A DNA stretch of 64,000 bases, taken from the NCBI GenBank assembly GCA_028279595.1, contig JANQNK010000013.1:1-64000 (forward strand), written 5' to 3'. Made by a program: the position numbers and the translations under genes. Source of the stretch: Thermoplasmatota archaeon. GTDB lineage: Archaea > Thermoplasmatota > JAKEGO01. The notes below the pieces were generated by a model. It saw only the letters and a list, made by a program, of their open reading frames with translations, ran no database searches and was not told the origin of the DNA. Positions 3-9,594 of the stretch are shown in pieces. The number at the start of each line of letters is the position of its first letter. The stretch's first letter is position 1.

Positions 3-3000
3 GTCCGGTCCATCGAGGGCGACTTCGGCTCGGGCAACGACACGCTCATCATCGACACCGGTGTCTACGCGGACGCGACGATCTACGGCGGGGCGGGAAA
101 CGACAAGATGGGCTACTCCGGGTCCGGGGACGTGGTCTTCCATGGCGACGGCAACGATGACGAGCTGACCGTGACCGGGGGAGCGATGTCCGCTCCCTCC
201 AGTGCGACCCTCAACGGTGGAGCCGGCAACGACACGCTCATCTCCGAATCATTGAGCGCCTCTCTCGGCGTCACACTGAACGGCGGCAACGGGAACGACA
301 CCCTCAAGGGAGGGAACGGACCCGACACGCTCAACGGTAACGACGGCGATGACACGCTGGAGGGCCGCGGCGGAAGGGACTCGTCGTACGGCGGTGCTGG
401 CGATGATATCTGCGCAGAGCTCCTCCCGAACCTTGTGAAGGGAGAGACGTACGACGGTGGCTCTGGAAACTACGACAGGTTGGACATCCTGGACGGGTTC
501 ACCCCCGACGATCTGAGGGTGAACCCCTATGGCACCGATTCCGCCAGGATCAGCTCCTACGTCGGTTCGACCGAGAAGGCCTACACCACAGTCAAGAACA
601 TCAATGCCATGGTATTCGAGGGCGGCGGAGGCGCAGACAGGTTCACCTTCACGGGTCATCTCGAACAATCGGGTCTCAGGAGCGTGACCGTCGAGATGGG
701 TACTGACTCATCAGCAGACCACGTGGAGTTGATACTCGACGACGAGGACAACTGGGTCCAGGTATCGGACTCCGGCGGAGGCCCGACCCCGGTCACTATG
801 ACCGCGAACTGGGTAGGCCAGTACGCCGTGAGCGTTCTGGACGGCGACTCGGCCGACGGGGACACGATGGCCATCAGGGCCATGGGCGGCGACGACATCC
901 TCTGTTCCGCGACGGTCTCGAACAACCCGTTCAGCAGGCTCCAGCTGTACGGCGGAGACGACGACGACAAGATCGTCGGTACGCCTGGCCTCGACCACCT
1001 GGACGGCGGCGACGGCGATGACAGGATGACCGGCTTGGGCGGTCTTGACACCTTCGCCGACTCGAGTGGATACGACATCCTGTTCGAGTACAGCCCCGAC
1101 GACTTCGGGCTCCACGGGAACCTGTTCATCATGGGCGACGCATCGGTGACCGGGACGGGTGAGGATCGCGTACTGTCCAACTTCACGAGTGCGACGGCCG
1201 AGGACATCACCGGAATATTCGAGGAGGCCCAGCTCAAGGGCAGCGGCGACGTCAACGTCTTCGCGATCGGTTCCGAGTCCGGGACGGTGACCGTGAACGG
1301 CACATCGATGTCCACCACCCAGTGGGACGGCATAGTCAACATCAACAGCATGGGCGGCGACGACGAGTACATCGTCGAACTTGCCGGCCTGAACGAGGCC
1401 ACAGTCCAGCTCATCGAGGCCGACCTCTACAACGGCGACGAGTTGATAGAGGAGGCCGGCGGGAACGACACCCTCTACTTCAAGGGCGGTCCCGGAGCCG
1501 ATACCGGCACGGTGGACGTGTCCGGGGACTGGAGCGTCCTCAGGATGCAGAAGCCCGGCGAGTCGGCGAGCGAGGTCTGGTCGACGACGACCATCGAGAC
1601 CAACAACGTCCACATGCTGGGCGGCGACGACACGCTCACACTCTACAATACTGATGTAAACACGATAATCAGCGGCGGCGATGGGGACGACCTCTTCATC
1701 GTCATGACAGGCGACTTCGACGCCGAGGTCATCGGCGGCCCGGACTACGACACCATCGACGGCCCGGACCAGGACAACATGTGGGTCATGACCGGGGACA
1801 GCGAGGGTACGCTCAATACCTACCTGGAGTTCTCCGAGATCGAACTTCTGAACGGGAACACATACCACGATACCATCGTGGGGACGGACACTGACGACTC
1901 CTTCGCCCTCACCGGGGACAACGAGGGAACCATGAACGGTGTCCTGGACTTCACGTCCATGGAACACGTCGACGGCGGCGTCGGGTCCGACGAGCTCGTC
2001 GGACACTATCGGGAGAACGTATTCAACATACTCGGCTGGAACGAGGGCGACCTGAACGTGGTCCTCACGTTGGAGTCGGTGGAGAACCTCACTGGTAACG
2101 ACGATAACGACGTCTTCGTGTTCTCGGACCAGCAGGGCATCGACGGCATCATCGACGGTGAGCCGGACGTCGACACGCTCGACTACTCGGCATACACGAC
2201 CGACCTGGACGTCAGGCTCGAGGACAACGAGGCCACCGGCACCGGCGGCGTGTTCGACATCGAGAACGTCATCGGCGGTTCCGGCGACGATTACATAGTC
2301 GGCAACGAGTGGGACAACGAACTGATCGGAAACGACGGCAACGATGAGATCCACGGTCGCGCGGGCAATGACGTCATATTCGGGAACACCGGCGAGGACC
2401 TCCTGGCGGGCGGTGACGACGACGACTGGCTCGAGGGCAACGAGGACGACGACGTGATCTTCGGCGACAACGCCGAGTTCAACTTCGACGATGACGACGT
2501 CCTTGTGGAGGCCGTGTCGGTCGAGACCGACAGCGGCGGTGACGACTACCTCCTGGGCCATGTCGGCGACGACATCCTTGTCGGCGGTCCGGGCGACGAT
2601 GACATCTTCGGCAACGAGGGCGACGACATCGGCCTCGGCGACAATGGTATCATACGGTTCCTCCTTGGCGAACCTGACGAGATCGAGGCCATCGATCCCG
2701 AGAACGGCGGCGACGACTACCTCAGCGGAGAGCTCGGCGACGACATCCTGATGGGCGGTCCGGCCGACGACTCCCTCGAGGGCGACGACGGCGAGGACAT
2801 ACTCTTCGGCGACGACGGAAAGGTCGAGAAGGCGCATGGTGTGGTGACCGATATCGAGTCCATGCCATTGGAGGTCGGGGACGAGAGCGGCGACGATTAC
2901 ATGGCTGGCTCGATGGATAATGACATCCTCGTGGGAGGTCCAGGCAACGATACCCTGACGGGCGGGGACGGTGACGACATCGGCCTCGGCGACTGCGGAA

Positions 3001-6000
3001 GGATCCACCTGCCCGGCGGCGAGCTGGAGGAGGTCGAGACCCTCTTCCCCGAGGAGGGCGGCGACGATTATCTGACTGGCGAAGATGGAGAGGACATACT
3101 GCTGGGCGGTCCCGGCGACGATACGATCTCCGGCGACGTCGGCGAGGACATCCTCCTCGGAGACGGAGGCTGGGTGTACGTCGAGAACGGCGTTCCACAG
3201 TTCATCGAGACATCACCTGAAGATACGGAATGCGACGATCTCATGGAGGGCGGTGAGGGCGACGACGTCCTGATGGGCGGTCTGGCCGATGACGAGATCC
3301 ATGGAGGGAGCGGCAACGACGTGATCGTCGGCGACGGTGGATCTGTGGAATTCGTGACGGGAACGGCCATGAGGGCGCAGATCGAGTCCACCGGTGACGA
3401 CGACGAGGACACGGGCGGAGACGATACCATCTACGGCAACGACGGTGACGATATCATCATAGGCGGGACGAACGATGATACGGTCTTCGGCAACACAGGT
3501 GTCGACATCCTTATCGGGGACGGCGGACGGCTGACATACGAGAATGGCATCATCGTGCTCATCGAGACCACCTCCCCCGACTCCGGGGGCGACGATTCCC
3601 TCAATGGAGATTCCGGTGACGACATCATCATGGGCGGACCGGAGGACGATACGATCTACGGAGGCGACGGCGACGACGTGTGCATCGGCGACGGCGGACA
3701 ACTAGTGTTCGTCGACGGCGTGCTCGTGAGACTGGAGGGCGTTTCACCCGGGGAAGGCGGCGACGATATCATCTATGCCGGCGACGGCGAGGACACTGTC
3801 TATGGCGGCTACGGTAACGACACCCTGGACACCGGCGACGACGACTCCGATGACATGGTCTTCGGCGACAGCGGAGGCATGACCTTCGGCGGTACCGGAG
3901 AGCAGGAGGACGATTCATCCATCCTGAGCTTCAACTTCGGAGCGGATGCGGGCAGCGGCTGCTGGGACGACGACGATGACGACGACTGGTGGTGGCAGTC
4001 CTCGCAGACGGATGTGACCGGAGTGGCCGGTGCGGGCGACGCTCGCGCCGGGAACTGGAACAACCTGAAGGGCAAGGGCCACTCGATCTTCGGTAACGAG
4101 CCCGGAGAGTTCATCCGGGACGACGACGGGGACACAGTCCCCGGAGTGACCGTCGAATGGGGGCGGAACATCGACTCCTACTGCTCGAAGAGCCTTTCAT
4201 CCGACACGCACAGCGAGATATGTCCCGAGGACGACCAGGACAAGCGTCTCTTCGAGGGATACCTGTACACGAGCAAGGGTTACACGCTCGGTGTCGACAT
4301 CTCGGGACTGGGTTGGCTCTACGAGGAGTACGATGTCTACGTCTATCTCGACGCCGACAACGGCAAGTCGAAGTACGGAAGGTCCGTCCGGACCATAACC
4401 GACGGTTCCACGACATATTACCTGGACGACCCGGACCATCACAACTTTGATGGAACGTATTCGCAGGTCACATCCACGAACAGCGGCTCTCCGCAGCGGG
4501 GGAACTACGTGGTGTTCGACGGCCTATCCTCTGACACAGTGTCGATCAGGATCGCCAGCCATACATGGACCTCGTACAACAGACCGGCGATAACTGCGAT
4601 ACAGATCGTGGGCGACCACCATCCGGTGGACGTCATCGGATCCTCCGATGACGACCTCGGCGGAGACGACACGATATCGACAGGAGGCGGCAACGACATC
4701 GTGATCGGCGGCGGCGGTGATGACGACATCAACACATCGGGCGACTCCCGATACGGCGGGAACGATGACGACATCGTGATCGGCGACGGAGGGCGGTTGA
4801 CCTTCGCTCTCGGCGAGCTAAGGGCGGTGGAGACCACCTCGCCCGAGACCGAGGACCGCGGAACCGACAACGACACGATCGTGACCGGCAACGGAGCCGA
4901 CCTGGTCTTCGGAGGCAATGGCGGGGACGATATCGATGCTGGCTCGCCTGATCAATACGATCACGGCGACCTGAAGGTCCTGAGCGTCAACTTCAACGGC
5001 GGCGTGGACAACGGTTACGTCGATGGGGTGGCCGGTGCCGTAGCCGTCGGCAACTGGAACAACGTCAATGCCGGATCCTGCGCCCATTCCCACTGCGATG
5101 ACGATGACGACGACGATGATGACTGGTGGTGGTGGTGCGATACAGAGTACGACGACGACCTTGTGTTCGACGACGGCACCGACGCCACGGACGTCACCGT
5201 CGAATGGGGATACAACCTCGATTCATGGAACTCTAAGAAATTGAGCAGGGACAGTCACAGCGAGATCGAACCGGACACTCAGAACGAGAGGCTGTTCGAG
5301 GGTTATCTGTACACTTCCAAGAGCAAGACCCTGGGCGTCGACATCACCGGTCTGGAGGACCACTTCGACTCGTTCGATGTCTACGTGTACCTCGATGCCG
5401 ACGACAAGAGGTCGCGGTCCGACAGCTCGATCCGGAGGATATCCGACGGCTCGACCGACTTCTACCTGGACGATCCCGACGGGAACGAGTTCAAGGGCGA
5501 GTTCGTGGAGGTCACTGCGACCGATCCGAGCGACGCGGCGACCGGGAACTACGTCGTCTTCAGGGACGTGTCCGGGGATTCGTTCGAGATAAGGATCGAC
5601 GACTACACAGGCTGTTACAGCAGTTCGCAGAACTATCCGGCGATAACTGCCCTGCAGATAGTCGGAGGTGACGACAAGGACGATGTCGTAATCACCGGAG
5701 ATCTGGACAAGGACATGGTCCTGGGCGACAACGGAGCGGCCCTCATTCACGAGGGCGACATCTATGAACTTTACACCACCGATGGAATGAACGGTGTCGA
5801 ACCGTTCCAGGGTGATACGATATCCACCGGACCCGATGCAGACATCGCCGTCGGAGGAAACGGCAGCGATACGATCGACGGAGGTTCCGGCGACGACCTG
5901 ATCCTGGGGGACAACGTACACCTGCTCTTCTTCGAAGGACGTCTCATCGACACCTGTACAGACCGTCACTGCTGCGGACACGATGACGATGACTGCGACG

Positions 6001-7259
6001 ACGACGATGATGACGACGATGACGATGATGATGACGATGATGACGACCAGGACGATGGTGACTGGCAGTGCCATTCTTGCTGGTGGTGGTGCTGGAGACA
6101 TCATCATCATTCCGAACCGTACCGTGTCCTCGGCATCCGGCTCGGTGATGACGAGATCGGCGGGAACGACAGCCTCGAGGGAGGCCGGGACAACGATCTC
6201 ATCTACGGTCAGTACGGGAACGACACCTACGTCTTCGATGGACTCGGACTGGGCCACGATCGTCTTGTCGAGGCCGGCGACTGCAATGATCCCCCGAACG
6301 ATCCACTGGACACGCTGGACTTCAGCATGTTCGGAGCCTCGGTCTGGATAGACCTCGACAGGTCCTGCGAGCAGACCGTGAACGGCGGGAGGACCTACAC
6401 CGATAGGAACCTGTCCTTGGCGCTCTTCTATCCGAGCGGGTTCGAGGGAGTCATCGGGAGCAAGTACGACGACGAGATCGAGGGGAACCATCGCGACAAC
6501 ACCCTCATGGGCATGGACGGCGACGACGAGATCGACGGCGAGTCGGGCGACGACACCATCGGCGGCGGTGACGGCAACGACGAGCTCGAGGGCGATTGTG
6601 GCGATGACACCATCGACGGTGGCGACGGGCACGACGACATCGAAGGGGACTCGGGCCACGACTCCATCAGCGGAGGTGACGGGAACGACTGCATCGACGG
6701 CGGATCCGGCGACGACTCGATCGAAGGCGGCGACGGCCATGACGACATCGACGGCGGGTCCGGCGACGACGACCTCATAGGCGGCGACGGCAACGACGAC
6801 ATCTACGGCGCTTCCGGCGACGATCACATCGAGGGAGGCGCTGGCCACGACGACCTCTGCGGAGGTTCCGGCGACGATACGATGGAGGGCGGCGACGACA
6901 ACGACGACATGTGGGGCGGCTCGGGCGACGATACCATGGAGGGCGGAGCCGGCGACGACGACATGGACGGCGACTCCGGCGACGACTCGATGTACGGTGA
7001 CGAGGGCGACGACGACATGTACGGCGACTCCGGACACGACCACATGGAGGGCGGCGATGGCGACGACGATATGTGGGGCGGTTCCGGCAACGACACGATG
7101 TTCGGCGACGATGGAGATGACGTCCTCTACGGCAACAGCGGATCGGACGATATCGACGGCGGCGAGGGTAATGATTACGTGTGTCTCGGAGGCAGTAAAC
7201 CGTGGTGGTGGTGCAACTGGGACGACGACGATGATGACGACGACGATGACGACGACTGA
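3..7259 (+). CDS. Giant RTX-like (hemolysin-type Ca-binding repeat) extracellular protein, 5'-truncated by the window edge (>2400 aa)
   Basis: The frame is open from position 3 (VRSIEGDFGSGNDTL...) through ORF 108..7259. It carries dozens of GGxGxDxL/I nonapeptides and GDxG-type repeats, two duplicated ~230-aa globular domains and a poly-Asp C-terminus. Confidence 0.9.
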   Translation, partial: VRSIEGDFGSGNDTLIIDTGVYADATIYGGAGNDKMGYSGSGDVVFHGDGNDDELTVTGGAMSAPSSATLNGGAGNDTLISESLSASLGVTLNGGNGNDTLKGGNGPDTLNGNDGDDTLEGRGGRDSSYGGAGDDICAELLPNLVKGETYDGGSGNYDRLDILDGFTPDDLRVNPYGTDSARISSYVGSTEKAYTTVKNINAMVFEGGGGADRFTFTGHLEQSGLRSVTVEMGTDSSADHVELILDDEDNWVQVSDSGGGPTPVTMTANWVGQYAVSVLDGDSADGDTMAIRAMGGDDILCSATVSNNPFSRLQLYGGDDDDKIVGTPGLDHLDGGDGDDRMTGLGGLDTFADSSGYDILFEYSPDDFGLHGNLFIMGDASVTGTGEDRVLSNFTSATAEDITGIFEEAQLKGSGDVNVFAIGSESGTVTVNGTSMSTTQWDGIVNINSMGGDDEYIVELAGLNEATVQLIEADLYNGDELIEEAGGNDTLYFKGGPGADTGTVDVSGDWSVLRMQKPGESASEVWSTTTIETNNVHMLGGDDTLTLYNTDVNTIISGGDGDDLFIVMTGDFDAEVIGGPDYDTIDGPDQDNMWVMTGDSEGTLNTYLEFSEIELLNGNTYHDTIVGTDTDDSFALTGDNEGTMNGVLDFTSMEHVDGGVGSDELVGHYRENVFNILGWNEGDLNVVLTLESVENLTGNDDNDVFVFSDQQGIDGIIDGEPDVDTLDYSAYTTDLDVRLEDNEATGTGGVFDIENVIGGSGDDYIVGNEWDNELIGNDGNDEIHGRAGNDVIFGNTGEDLLAGGDDDDWLEGNEDDDVIFGDNAEFNFDDDDVLVEAVSVETDSGGDDYLLGHVGDDILVGGPGDDDIFGNEGDDIGLGDNGIIRFLLGEPDEIEAIDPENGGDDYLSGELGDDILMGGPADDSLEGDDGEDILFGDDGKVEKAHGVVTDIESMPLEVGDESGDDYMAGSMDNDILVGGPGNDTLTGGDGDDIGLGDCGRIHLPGGELEEVETLFPEEGGDDYLTGEDGEDILLGGPGDDTISGDVGEDILLGDGGWVYVENGVPQFIETSPEDTECDDLMEGGEGDDVLMGGLADDEIHGGSGNDVIVGDGGSVEFVTGTAMRAQIESTGDDDEDTGGDDTIYGNDGDDIIIGGTNDDTVFGNTGVDILIGDGGRLTYENGIIVLIETTSPDSGGDDSLNGDSGDDIIMGGPEDDTIYGGDGDDVCIGDGGQLVFVDGVLVRLEGVSPGEGGDDIIYAGDGEDTVYGGYGNDTLDTGDDDSDDMVFGDSGGMTFGGTGEQEDDSSILSFNFGADAGSGCWDDDDDDDWWWQSSQTDVTGVAGAGDARAGNWNNLKGKGHSIFGNEPGEFIRDDDGDTVPGVTVEWGRNIDSYCSKSLSSDTHSEICPEDDQDKRLFEGYLYTSKGYTLGVDISGLGWLYEEYDVYVYLDADNGKSKYGRSVRTITDGSTTYYLDDPDHHNFDGTYSQVTSTNSGSPQRGNYVVFDGLSSDTVSIRIASHTWTSYNRPAITAIQIVGDHHPVDVIGSSDDDLGGDDTISTGGGNDIVIGGGGDDDINTSGDSRYGGNDDDIVIGDGGRLTFALGELRAVETTSPETEDRGTDNDTIVTGNGADLVFGGNGGDDIDAGSPDQYDHGDLKVLSVNFNGGVDNGYVDGVAGAVAVGNWNNVNAGSCAHSHCDDDDDDDDDWWWWCDTEYDDDLVFDDGTDATDVTVEWGYNLDSWNSKKLSRDSHSEIEPDTQNERLFEGYLYTSKSKTLGVDITGLEDHFDSFDVYVYLDADDKRSRSDSSIRRISDGSTDFYLDDPDGNEFKGEFVEVTATDPSDAATGNYVVFRDVSGDSFEIRIDDYTGCYSSSQNYPAITALQIVGGDDKDDVVITGDLDKDMVLGDNGAALIHEGDIYELYTTDGMNGVEPFQGDTISTGPDADIAVGGNGSDTIDGGSGDDLILGDNVHLLFFEGRLIDTCTDRHCCGHDDDDCDDDDDDDDDDDDDDDDDQDDGDWQCHSCWWWCWRHHHHSEPYRVLGIRLGDDEIGGNDSLEGGRDNDLIYGQYGNDTYVFDGLGLGHDRLVEAGDCNDPPNDPLDTLDFSMFGASVWIDLDRSCEQTVNGGRTYTDRNLSLALFYPSGFEGVIGSKYDDEIEGNHRDNTLMGMDGDDEIDGESGDDTIGGGDGNDELEGDCGDDTIDGGDGHDDIEGDSGHDSISGGDGNDCIDGGSGDDSIEGGDGHDDIDGGSGDDDLIGGDGNDDIYGASGDDHIEGGAGHDDLCGGSGDDTMEGGDDNDDMWGGSGDDTMEGGAGDDDMDGDSGDDSMYGDEGDDDMYGDSGHDHMEGGDGDDDMWGGSGNDTMFGDDGDDVLYGNSGSDDIDGGEGNDYVCLGGSKPWWWCNWDDDDDDDDDDDD
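3916..5668 (+). repeat. Internal duplication of a ~230-aa beta-rich domain in the RTX-like protein (copies ~3916-4613 and ~4971-5668)
   Basis: Both copies share NWNN, VTVEWG-N-DS, HSEI-P, RLFEGYLYTSK..TLGVDI, DVYVYLDAD, YLDDPD, GNYVVF and PAITA-QIVG. Confidence 0.85.
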
Positions 7260-7263
7260 TGAT

Positions 7264-9594
7264 TCAATTGTTCTCCGCAACGATCTCAGGTTCGACGACC
7301 TCTATCTCGGCAGCGGCCGCTTCCGTTTCGAGGACCGCACGATAGTCGTCCGTCAGGTTGATCCCTTCACCGCGGGATGCGTTCACCACGTTCTTGCGCT
7401 TCAACCTCTTGATGTGGTGGGAGACAGTCGAGGGTGACAGTCCTATCTTCGTGGCCAGGTCCTTCTGGGCGATGCCCGGCTCCGCCTGGACGAAGGCAAC
7501 GATCCGCTGCTCCGTCTCGTCGAGCACGAACTCCGGTATCCTGTACCCGTGGGGGTAGAATCGCTTGTAGAAGCCGTCAGAACGAGCCCTCAGGAAACCT
7601 GAGGCTTCGAGGACACGTAAATGATAACCGGCAGAGCCGTTCGGCATCTCCAGGTCCTTCTTGATCATGCTGAAGTGGGCTCCGGGATTGTGCCTGATGT
7701 ACTCGATTATCCGTCCTCTGGTCTTCTGGTCGGCGACCGTCTCCTCCTTCAATTTGGTGTAAAGTGGGAAGAGGAGCCCGAACAGGGAGTAGAATCCGAT
7801 ACCTGTGGCTGCGAAAGCAACGAAACCCCCTGCGACGATTCCGGCAACGATCAGTTGCTCTTCTTCGGAAAGGAATGGTTCGGCGGGGTCCTTCGGAGCC
7901 GGATCGATGCTGTTGTCCACGATAATCGTGATGTTCTCGTAGAATGAGAAATGATGTTCATCCCTAACCCTGACAGTAATGTTGTGGACGCCGTTTGTGA
8001 GGTTCCACGTGTCGTAGGCAAGGCTCCATATCTCGGTTCCATTGGTCCCAAGCCATTGCTCGCCATCTATGCGGATCTGGACGATGATCAGTTCACCATC
8101 CTCGTCCTCGGCCGTACCATTGAACCAGATCCACCCGCTCACGGTAGTTCCGTCGATCGGCCCGGCTATCGACACCTCTGGTCTGACGTTGATCAGGATG
8201 GTTATGGTACTGGATACACCAATGGTACCATTATCATCCTCGATATCGAGGGTGATGTTATGTTCGCCGACCGAAAGGCCATCGGTCGAGAAGTTCGCAT
8301 CAACCCCCGAATGAAGGATACCGTCGCGATCGGATGTCCATGTGTGGGTAATGACACCATCATCCCTGGTCGTCGCATTGAAATGGACCTCTTCGTCCAC
8401 GATAGCCTTTCGGGGGGAGTCGACACGCAGTATCCTCGGTACCTCGTTCCTAATGCGAATCCAATCCAGAACGGGAGCATCATCTGCTGAATCTCCCCCA
8501 TCAATTAGATACGGTGCATCCCCGAATCCGTCATGGTTTGTGTCATTTCCGACATAATCGGACCATTCGTTCCCGACATTACCATAGGACCAATGGTTCC
8601 GACCGGTATTGTCGAATCCCTGCGACGAATGATCCCCGTTGTCGATGAACCGGTTGCGGAAGATCCAGTTATCTACACTCGGGCCATAGGCGGATACGGA
8701 AATACCGTATTCACCGTTGGAGTGTACTAGGTTATTTGTGATATTGTTTAACGAGTTTCTTCCTAGCACTATACCCGATAGATCGTTATTGTGCACATTG
8801 CTGTTCATCAGAATGTTCCCATGTCCCACAGCGAACTGGATACCGGTCTCTCCGAATTCGGAGACCTCGATGTTATCGAAGATGTTGTTATGGGACTCCC
8901 ATGCTTCGATACCTTGCATCGTTCCATTGGTCAACGTGCAATCGGTGAACTCATTGTTCGAACTGAATGATAGGTTGATTCCAATGTAATGGCTGTCATG
9001 GACCGTGACGTTGTGGATCACGTTCCGGTCCGACGAACCCAGGAACAGGGAGTTCATTCCGTTCTTAATGGTAGTATCCGCGATCACGTTCCTGTCGGAG
9101 AGGGTCAGACCGATCGAGCCATTGACAGAGAGATTCTGGATTTCGTTGTCATCGCCTAAGACATCGATTCCGCCAGATACCGTGAGGTTGCTGAGCCGGC
9201 ATTCGGTACCCTGGACCGTCAATCGATATGTCATAATATCCATCTGGGAGACTGTAACAAAATCAGCGTTGATCATGAATTCGTCGGTCGGGCTGCTCGA
9301 ATTCAGCAGCGAAACGTCTGTCCCATTGCCTTCGATATCTACCTGAGTGAAAACTGAGACCGATTCACTGTAATTACCCTTGTAGACCCTGATCGTATCT
9401 CCATCCGAGGACGCATTCAAAGCATCCTGGATCGTGTTGAACTGCGCCCACCACCCCGGATCGTCGTCCACCACGATCTCAACGGACGAGGCCCCCGGCA
9501 GCGAGTACAGGATCGTTAAGGAGATGACGACCGAGGCCGCCAGGAACCCCGTCCTCCAGCTGGAGCGTGAACGTGAAACCGTGTCGTCTACCAT
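7264..9594 (-). CDS. Membrane-anchored transcriptional regulator: signal peptide + parallel beta-helix (NosD-like) + Ig/PKD-like domains + TM + two winged helix-turn-helix domains
   Basis: N-terminal hydrophobic signal, VVDDD..IQDAL, Asn-rich beta-helix ending GNEWSDY..DG.GD, TM segment (LIVAGIVAGGFVAF...), then TRGRIIEYIRHNPGAHFSMIKKDL..YHLRVLE and RIVAFVQAEPGIAQKDLATKIGLSPSTVSHHIKRL. Confidence 0.85.
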   Translation of the reverse strand: MVDDTVSRSRSSWRTGFLAASVVISLTILYSLPGASSVEIVVDDDPGWWAQFNTIQDALNASSDGDTIRVYKGNYSESVSVFTQVDIEGNGTDVSLLNSSSPTDEFMINADFVTVSQMDIMTYRLTVQGTECRLSNLTVSGGIDVLGDDNEIQNLSVNGSIGLTLSDRNVIADTTIKNGMNSLFLGSSDRNVIHNVTVHDSHYIGINLSFSSNNEFTDCTLTNGTMQGIEAWESHNNIFDNIEVSEFGETGIQFAVGHGNILMNSNVHNNDLSGIVLGRNSLNNITNNLVHSNGEYGISVSAYGPSVDNWIFRNRFIDNGDHSSQGFDNTGRNHWSYGNVGNEWSDYVGNDTNHDGFGDAPYLIDGGDSADDAPVLDWIRIRNEVPRILRVDSPRKAIVDEEVHFNATTRDDGVITHTWTSDRDGILHSGVDANFSTDGLSVGEHNITLDIEDDNGTIGVSSTITILINVRPEVSIAGPIDGTTVSGWIWFNGTAEDEDGELIIVQIRIDGEQWLGTNGTEIWSLAYDTWNLTNGVHNITVRVRDEHHFSFYENITIIVDNSIDPAPKDPAEPFLSEEEQLIVAGIVAGGFVAFAATGIGFYSLFGLLFPLYTKLKEETVADQKTRGRIIEYIRHNPGAHFSMIKKDLEMPNGSAGYHLRVLEASGFLRARSDGFYKRFYPHGYRIPEFVLDETEQRIVAFVQAEPGIAQKDLATKIGLSPSTVSHHIKRLKRKNVVNASRGEGINLTDDYRAVLETEAAAAEIEVVEPEIVAENN

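Follow-up and report, generated by a model that had tools for sequence, protein, structure and literature searches.

Asp-, Trp- and Cys-rich cassettes of a giant archaeal RTX-repeat protein: putative cation- or surface-binding loops and tails

The archaeal DNA analysed here, a stretch of 64,000 nucleotides (the window) from a Thermoplasmatota archaeon, begins with the 5'-truncated gene of a giant RTX-repeat protein that carries four unusual tracts, termed cassettes in the following, in which runs of Asp residues are combined with clusters of Trp residues as well as with Cys and His. These cassettes are real, they are disordered or exposed in structural models, and both their positions and the type of their residues are conserved. 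We tentatively favour, at slightly less than an even chance, the reading that they are genuine, selectively maintained, disordered surface loops and tails of this RTX giant that act as multivalent cation- and surface-binding stickers, ion binding and adhesion being the roles that their sequences suggest.

Results

The four cassettes and their positions

The four cassettes put forward in the original prediction are all found, at the proposed positions, in the translation of one long open reading frame (ORF; Table 1), except that the C-terminal Asp run comprises 12 residues and not 11. The reading frame is unbroken through all four tracts and their flanks align in frame with homologues. Cassette 3 consists of 52 residues with 7 Cys, 7 His, one D4 and one D17 run and the motif CWWWCW. 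Taken together, the cassettes amount to 103 residues, i.e. 4.3% of the protein, and contain 17 of its 37 Trp (19-fold enrichment, p=1e-14), 12 of its 26 Cys (19-fold, p=1e-10) and 9 of its 44 His residues (5.8-fold). The source assembly is a metagenome-assembled genome (MAG) of 21 contigs and 2.29 Mb that is 86% complete, and when this genome is translated in all six frames, only this ORF contains a WWW cluster adjacent to an Asp run. No Pfam family matches the peptides of cassettes 2 and 3 at E<=1, in keeping with the earlier view that the motif belongs to no described family.

Cassettes 1 and 2 are located in two β-sandwich domains, A and B, that are paralogues of ~200 residues each. Cassette 1 is a 17-residue insert ~20 residues before the NWNN motif of domain A, where it separates the first strand (..LSFNF) from the VTGxAG...NWNN segment, and cassette 2 is an insert ~9 residues past the NWNN motif of domain B. 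The domain alignment thus places them on either side of this motif, which agrees with the claim that they occupy different loops of two paralogous domains. From this claim the original prediction had derived an independent module; placement is indeed independent of the domain duplication, but the cassettes do not form a free-standing motif family and are rather a local flavour of hot-spot loops found throughout the protein family (see below). Cassette 3 occupies a linker, i.e. one β-roll block ends with ..LILGDNVHLLFFEGRLID and the next one begins with PYRVLGIRLGDDEIGGNDSLEGG.., and cassette 4, which reads ...GGSKPWWWCNWDDDDDDDDDDDD-stop, comes after the last RTX repeat.

AlphaFold2 (AF2) models suggest that cassettes 2 and 4 are disordered. 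In the model of domain B the D9W4 loop of cassette 2 (model residues 63-72) is the sole stretch with a predicted local distance difference test (pLDDT) score <50, and in the model of the last 260 residues, for which the alignment is shallow (2 sequences), the tail (residues 239-256) has pLDDT <50 on an otherwise confident fold.

An archaeal orthologue keeps the residue types

The gene is present in 2 of the 61 Thermoplasmatota genomes searched, and the only relative among 60 that contains it is an independently assembled MAG from within the archaeal family concerned (G001, contig C93). Its protein P0112 (MCI0497836.1, 'Thermoplasmata archaeon') is 53% identical over 770 residues. As this contig is partial and the region of site 1 falls outside, the comparison covers site 2, site 3 and the C-terminus. 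At site 2 the orthologue has a Cys/Asp/Trp insert, NWNNLPGDSHRSCDDGDDGCGDDDDDGCGGGQGHRCWWCDDD (...SHRSCDDGDDGCGDDDDDGCGGGQGHRCWWCDDD), at site 3 an 81-residue block of Cys, Gly, Trp, Asp and His, and its Trp-rich C-terminus, ...CDIVKQGSGWSWGWP (...GSGWSWGWP; stop verified), aligns with that of the window protein. Moreover, the flanking of the Trp cluster by Cys recurs, with CWWWC and WWWWC in the window protein and CWWC in the orthologue. A lack of conserved Trp, Cys and His in orthologues had been named as a finding that would refute the original prediction; instead, the residue types are kept at all three positions compared. No synteny with this relative was found 3' of the gene.

Ligand-type tracts occupy fixed sites throughout the protein family

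Site positions were extracted over 248 homologues on the basis of sequence anchors. Site 1 carries HDDDDWWDN in P0003, HD8GH in P0113 and DDHHDDDHHDDKD in P0132, and in addition SHGGCCHGS is found; site 2 carries, for instance, NNDDHHRDYRHHRHHRHHNHHHD, HSHGPHHWGGHGHHHGGGH and SGDDDDDDG. In about 12 of 22 homologues, tracts rich in H, D, W and C expand site 3 (18 to ~90 residues), and their (H/D)n blocks regularly include Trp, e.g. DWHHDHDHDDDHGHHDW, HGHWYHHHDHHGHWHHHH and GCAWDDLHHHHHDHHDYPHHC. A fourth hot-spot site lies past ..VEAG (HDHHHGHHDGHDDHHHHHHHHHDHG, DNHGDDCWNWGHDFWEWGHDYGNH), and a further tract at the shared sites reads ADDDDDDDHYHH. The homologues with tracts of this kind are for the most part labelled as bacterial. 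The cassettes are, to judge from these sequences, the Asp/Cys/Trp flavour, specific to a Thermoplasmata lineage, of a family-wide trait that occupies three to four constant positions in loops or linkers: the archaeal pair has Asp, Cys and Trp at sites where most bacterial members have His and Asp. These bacterial tracts of ligand-type residues at matching sites fit an ion-binding role.

A Trp-rich end, defined as at least 3 Trp in the last 20 residues, is found in 4 of the 248 family proteins, whereas 0.14 are expected from composition, and in two of the four a different domain precedes it. Besides the archaeal pair, such ends are seen in P0012 (..HGHYHGYCTPWWWWLC; ...CTPWWWWLC) and P0013 (..HNHHHDQDWPWWWTW; ...DWPWWWTW). 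Related Trp-containing tracts are restricted to P0003, P0012, P0013, P0093 and P0112 among the 248 proteins. P0093, a distant RTX homologue of 2875 residues from a JGI metagenome, has a Trp/Gly/Pro-rich stretch, ..NWPWWWGGVWWGSWGPWPGWDDDYWHGHGPW.., at residues ~1810-1870, and thus a further Trp-rich variety of low complexity within the wider family.

The Asp tracts are not pure microsatellites

The original prediction had considered neutral slippage of GAY/TGG microsatellites as the explanation that would refute it. The Asp tracts, however, are not pure microsatellites, since they are composed of 33 GAC and 19 GAT codons that are finely interspersed. In each of the four tracts the longest run of an identical codon measures 3 (p ~0.02 under random mixing), and GAT accounts for 36% of the codons in the tracts vs 20% in the remaining gene (p=0.035). 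Only 3 of 55 tract positions are interrupted (by C, Q and G), and neither Glu nor Asn, Ala or Val occurs. Neutral point mutation of GAC/GAT yields 2.75-5 non-synonymous changes per synonymous one, i.e. the 19 positions with the minor codon let 50-95 replacements be expected under neutrality, and 3 are seen. The resulting non-synonymous/synonymous ratio is ~0.03-0.06 of the neutral expectation, a crude analytic rate-ratio estimate that presumes mixing of GAC and GAT by point mutation, not by slippage of mixed units, and is thus indicative only.

A second giant protein with a related block

The same genome encodes a second giant protein that is unrelated to the RTX protein (contig C18, 210352-251607; open frame of 13,752 codons). 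It contains a signal peptide, DUF7507, DUF11 and CARDB repeats, two DUF642-like β-sandwiches and a C-terminal transmembrane (TM) helix followed by RKKRRY. About 500 residues from its C-terminal end, immediately upstream of a DUF642 β-sandwich, lies a Cys/Asp(/Trp) block of ~115 residues, ...SSCWDKYMKWCKWWKYRSC-D9-CGSCDDDDNGCDDDC... (..KWCKWWKYRSC-D9-CGSCDDDD..), and a second block reads CCWKYKLCGKHTSCCEGG-D8. The two giants account for 7 of the 11 runs of at least six Asp in ORFs of at least 150 residues of this genome. Pfam finds no TSP_3 in the Cys/Asp block, and a search with this query in 20 relatives did not retrieve the block. The block and the RTX cassettes together indicate that Cys-framed poly-Asp with nearby Trp is a trait of the giant surface-type proteins of this organism, located beside galactose-binding-like β-sandwiches.

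The host protein and its domains

The gene is cut at base 1 of contig C10, where the window starts, and its 5' end is open; no other contig-end RTX ORF that could hold its N-terminal half is present in the assembly. The sole Pfam family found in the protein is PF00353 (HemolysinCabind), with 22 stretches, E 7.5e-85 and a score of 278.7 bits vs a cut-off of 23, which confirms tandem GGxGxDxUx nonapeptide repeats. The last 260 residues are predicted to form a continuous β-roll of 26 short strands with a 9-residue period, so that the earlier description of the protein as an RTX-like giant holds.

Domain B is predicted to be a malectin- or carbohydrate-binding module (CBM)-like β-sandwich, and the same is predicted for its paralogue, domain A. 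Structural comparison of the domain B model by VIA-align gives the malectin-like domain of FERONIA (6a5e_B; Z 11.4, root-mean-square deviation 3.4, 164 aligned residues), the C-terminal domain of GUS (6d50_A; Z 11.2), YxiM (2o14_A; Z 9.9) and malectin (2k46; Z 8.2). Foldseek against the PDB returns weak matches of the same class (E>=1.3e-3) and none at E<=0.001, and searches of Pfam, NCBIfam and PDB sequences give no match on the β-sandwich domain. The Atlas lead for domain B is the galactose-binding-like family PF21254 (score 0.82), with no sequence match besides. The domain family comprises 227 representative matches, and those from named organisms are mostly bacterial (Planctomycetota, Thermodesulfobacteriota, Fibrobacter and others).

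Table 1. Features of the RTX-repeat gene and of the protein it encodes; nucleotide positions refer to the window, domain and fold assignments are predictions.
Feature	Position	Strand	Remarks
Giant RTX-repeat protein gene	3-7259	+	2418 codons, 5' truncated by contig start; PF00353 the only Pfam family
β-sandwich domain A, malectin/CBM-like	3918-4613	+	paralogue of domain B, 44% identity
Cassette 1, CWD7WWW	3960-3995	+	residues 1320-1331; site 1, domain A
β-sandwich domain B, malectin/CBM-like	4989-5666	+	AF2 model, pLDDT 85, predicted template modelling score (pTM) 0.84
Cassette 2, CAHSHCD9WWWWC	5079-5138	+	residues 1693-1712; site 2, domain B
Cassette 3, CTDRHCCGHD4CD17QDDGDWQCHSCWWWCWRHHHH	5955-6110	+	residues 1985-2036; site 3, linker
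C-terminal RTX β-roll, ~26 strands	6477-7187	+	AF2 model, pLDDT 81-93 over residues 1-237
Cassette 4, tail PWWWCNW-D12-stop	7200-7259	+	residues 2400-2418; C-terminus

Discussion

A putative role as multivalent stickers

If the cassettes act as stickers, their parts could contribute in different ways. The Asp runs would chelate Ca2+ or other hard cations, either in solution or at a surface, the flanking CxxC, Cx3-4C and His clusters may ligate softer metals or, alternatively, staple the loop by disulfides, and the adjacent Trp cluster may provide aromatic contacts. In combination, these parts would let an adhesin-like protein hold on to particles or polymers with higher avidity. As to the target, nothing favours minerals, for which the original prediction had suggested nucleation, over metals or glycans, and since the loops sit on malectin/CBM-like domains, a glycan target is no less plausible than a mineral one.

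Several observations weigh against such a role. Most family members are devoid of inserts at sites 1 and 2, and the domain alignment, by which the original prediction had meant to decide whether the cassette is a variable insert, reveals strong variation of the inserts in presence, length and sequence, as expected for weakly constrained low-complexity DNA. Moreover, compositions track codon neighbourhoods, i.e. D/H/N/Y correspond to NAY codons, and GWRGGGWWGWRGWHSGC at site 3 of the orthologue corresponds to TGG and its one-step neighbours C/G/R/S. To judge from these neighbourhoods, it is certain that the tracts originated in the expansion of triplets together with point mutation. The selection estimate carries the restriction given above. 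Finally, a location outside the cell is assumed: an export signal is not seen, as the N-terminus is cut off, and no type I secretion system (T1SS) is found in the genome, which is 86% complete. The best match to HlyD-type fusion proteins (TIGR01843) scores 18.6 bits vs a cut-off of 208.65, and the best match to HlyB-type exporters (TIGR01846) scores 127.8 bits vs a cut-off of 725.55 and covers the ATPase domain only. The protein is presumably extracellular.

These points lead to the alternative that the tracts arose by neutral or near-neutral slippage of (GAY)n and (TGG)n, which is tolerated at permissive loops, linkers and the C-terminus without any specific function. We regard this as unlikely, although it deserves more weight than the other alternatives below. 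It would account for the variability of the inserts at every site and for compositions that follow single-step codon neighbourhoods (D/H/N/Y; W/C/G/R/S in the orthologue). Termini and loops are, moreover, the usual places where such tracts are tolerated, and most matches to an Asp/Trp pattern in metagenomes are short ORFs that resemble simple-sequence DNA (see below). Drift alone, however, does not readily explain why an orthologue with 53% identity retains the same types of residue at site 2, at site 3 and at its C-terminus, or why Trp-rich C-termini occur in four family proteins, two of them with another preceding domain. Likewise, the interspersed GAC and GAT codons with almost no non-synonymous interruption and no Glu, the consistent bracketing of Trp clusters by Cys (CWWWC, CWWC, CTPWWWWLC) and the recurrence of the motif in a second, unrelated giant of the genome argue against neutrality.

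A function in glycan binding is a more specific alternative, and a doubtful one. The cassettes would extend a glycan-binding site, with Trp stacking on sugars and Asp-held Ca2+ bridging acidic polysaccharides (pectin-, alginate- or exopolysaccharide-like), and thereby serve polymer capture instead of the binding of minerals or metals. CBM36 and CBM35 bind their ligands via Ca2+, and CBMs use Trp platforms. The predicted malectin/CBM-type fold of domain B (Z 8-11; PF21254 as lead), the position of the Cys/Asp/Trp block of the second giant next to a DUF642 β-sandwich and the presence of several neighbouring genes for surface proteins with a pectate-lyase-type β-helix are in line with this idea. 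Yet cassettes 3 and 4 are not located on β-sandwich domains, the loops are predicted to be disordered, and the His-rich versions in homologues resemble metal ligands rather than sugar ligands.

A bolder version of the sticker reading goes beyond what we favour and we consider it about as doubtful as the glycan-binding alternative. Here, the Cys-bracketed Asp(n)-Trp(n) motif would be a selected, portable sticker of surface proteins of sediment Thermoplasmata, in which the thiol/disulfide state and Ca2+ jointly switch an aromatic patch on or off for the attachment to mineral or organic particles, and the C-terminal P-W3-4 would be an undescribed tag that some bacterial RTX giants have as well.

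Alternatively, a role in structure or trafficking could apply to cassette 4 and possibly to the Trp residues of cassette 3 as well. A C-terminal P-W3-4 element would then cap the open end of the β-roll or serve as an export, anchoring or sorting tag, with poly-Asp as spacer or solubiliser, which we hold to be improbable. Folding of RTX blocks depends on a structure that caps their C-terminal end, as has been demonstrated for block V of CyaA, and three proteins carry P-W-W-W among their final 19 residues (KPWWWCNW, TPWWWWLC, WPWWWTW), the archaeal orthologue ending with GWSWGWP; the Trp-ended proteins also share one, weakly supported, neighbourhood in a quick tree. AF2, however, leaves the tail unpacked in a model based on a shallow alignment, which gives no support to a β-roll cap. 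All T1SS components are below the cut-off, and cassettes 1 and 2 would be left unexplained. The tail, moreover, has no hydrophobic helix and ends with acidic residues, not with the basic end of PGF- and PEP-CTERM signals, so that we rejected a PGF-/PEF-/PEP-CTERM signal for archaeosortases or exosortases; neighbouring surface proteins, in contrast, do have a TM helix and a basic end.

Low-complexity sequence is prone to errors, as are the ends of contigs, one of which truncates the gene, but that the tracts are assembly or sequencing artefacts is highly improbable: none of the four interrupts the reading frame, homologues align in frame on either side of them, and an independently assembled relative carries inserts of the same type at site 2 and at site 3 as well as a C-terminus rich in Trp.

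Comparison with known systems

The cassettes are of a known kind, i.e. acid- or ligand-rich disordered loops on extracellular scaffolds, with an unusual Asp/Trp/Cys chemistry that seems to be kept by selection. By analogy, their closest counterparts in mode of action would be the flexible metal loops of ZnuA, ZnuD or SlyD, which are rich in His and Asp, and poly-Asp segments that bind Ca2+.

The host protein shares GGxGxD repeats, a predicted β-roll, giant size and interspersed β-sandwich domains of the ligand-binding type with RTX β-roll proteins and giant adhesins (PF00353; MpIBP- and LapA-type proteins, CyaA blocks). In contrast to these, the host is archaeal, and the C-terminus consists of a Trp cluster and 12 Asp instead of a T1SS-type signal. 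Because an exporter of the HlyB/HlyD type was searched for in this 86%-complete genome and none scored above the cut-off, we do not class the protein with the T1SS-secreted RTX adhesins. In the literature searched, the Asp/Trp/Cys cassettes are not reported as a feature of RTX proteins, and neither Asp/Trp nor His/Asp cassettes are described for them.

Flexible metal-binding loops and tails rich in His and Asp (and Cys) are found in ZnuA, in ZnuD loops, in the C-terminal tail of SlyD, in Hpn and in the (HD)n loop of RcnA. Like the loops of the ZnuA/ZnuD/SlyD type, the cassettes are exposed, predicted to be disordered, variable in length and rich in ligand residues at fixed positions of a scaffold (Cys 19-fold and His 5.8-fold enriched, pLDDT <50). 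In the cassettes, however, Asp dominates and His is minor, Cys-bracketed runs of 3-4 Trp are added, the scaffold is an RTX giant and not a transporter or chaperone, and no metal-uptake genes lie nearby.

Poly-Asp binders of Ca2+ or minerals comprise the calsequestrin tail, the poly-Asp of osteopontin and molluscan Aspein/Asprich, and thrombospondin type 3 repeats are disulfide-stapled, Asp-rich Ca2+ 'wires'. Long Asp runs, a strict preference for Asp over Glu, a (for the cassettes presumed) extracellular context and Cys residues that frame the acidic stretch are common to these proteins and the cassettes. There is no sequence relationship, however, Trp clusters are absent from the known motifs, and binding of Ca2+ or minerals by the cassettes is putative. 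Disordered Ca2+-binding motifs have been described (PMC8391695). Thrombospondin type 3 repeats (PF02412) as such were tried and rejected, as Pfam gives no match at E<=1 for the peptides of cassettes 2 and 3.

Type A CBMs bind via planar aromatic strips, and a small Trp cluster on or beside a β-sandwich domain of the CBM-like type could form a flat aromatic surface as well. The aromatic residues of type A CBMs are, however, spaced on a folded face, whereas the Trp residues of the cassettes are contiguous in a loop that is predicted to be disordered.

In environmental genomes, few genes are as large or as poorly understood as those of giant RTX-type proteins, and the present case shows a whole family that keeps low-complexity tracts of the ligand type at constant positions in loops and linkers. 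Should the tracts bind cations or surfaces, uncultured sediment microbes would have in them a simple and tunable means of particle attachment or metal capture, and as short peptides they would be easy to test in vitro. Extremely few sequences combine 3-4 consecutive Trp with 7-17 adjacent Asp, and a selected function, if true, would be of interest to peptide and materials chemistry.

Occurrence of the Asp/Trp pattern elsewhere

The original prediction had proposed a pattern search for the taxonomic spread of the cassette. Run as an exact DNA pattern for D5W3, the search gives 5 matches, all in frame, in 185,579 species genomes (one genome per species) and 61 matches, mostly in short ORFs resembling simple-sequence DNA, in 241 million metagenome records. 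As none of the 5 genome and 61 metagenome matches lies in an RTX protein, we rejected the idea that the cassette is a widespread RTX motif.

Three of the 5 genome matches (3 of the 4 in complete ORFs) lie in the last 13 residues of unrelated bacterial proteins, which may point to an Asp(n)Trp(n) tail that recurs at C-termini. One of them is a small Streptomyces protein of the secreted type (L001:5885-5908) that ends with ..NGDDDDDWWWWWDLP; the remaining two (L003:5513-5536 and L004:3415-3438) are a Verrucomicrobiales protein ending with ..LDDDDDWWW and an alphaproteobacterial one ending with ..GDDDDDDDWWWDD.

Among the metagenome matches, five marine contigs (L014:3569-3727, L009, L028, L045 and L050) share a conserved ORF of 51-52 residues, MSITP..LFEEPC.LYDDDDDWWW[HS]CRL[RK]YDY... 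In L014 this ORF is flanked by a transaldolase gene (PF00923) and an alternative-oxidase/PTOX-like gene (PF01786), i.e. a cyanophage-like context, and it has no Pfam match; its Cys-bracketed acidic loop followed by C-R-x-x-Y-D may resemble CP12. On five eukaryote-like marine contigs (L057, L059, L068, L017 and L026) ..WCRSDDDDDDWWWWCHWYDDDY.. recurs in a short, possibly coding open frame, and these contigs carry ORFs for a Rab-type GTPase and a kinase-like protein as well as many overlapping ORFs.

Origin of the gene and its neighbourhood

The quick tree, built from 68 homologues, is poorly resolved with many open forks and puts the window protein near a protein from Thermodesulfobacteriota; the nearest named homologues are bacterial. 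Together with the occurrence in 2 of 61 genomes, this suggests that the gene may have been acquired by inter-domain transfer into this archaeal family.

The stop codon of the RTX gene (7257-7259) is separated by 4 nucleotides from the convergent neighbour gene. The region that follows (7264-28010) is a cluster of genes for surface proteins with Sec signals and pectate-lyase-type right-handed β-helices (NosD, Beta_helix and Pectinesterase matches), several of which have a TM helix and then basic residues at the C-terminal end. The neighbour itself (7264-9594, reverse strand) encodes a β-helix ectodomain fused to helix-turn-helix domains of the HVO_0163 and MarR types.

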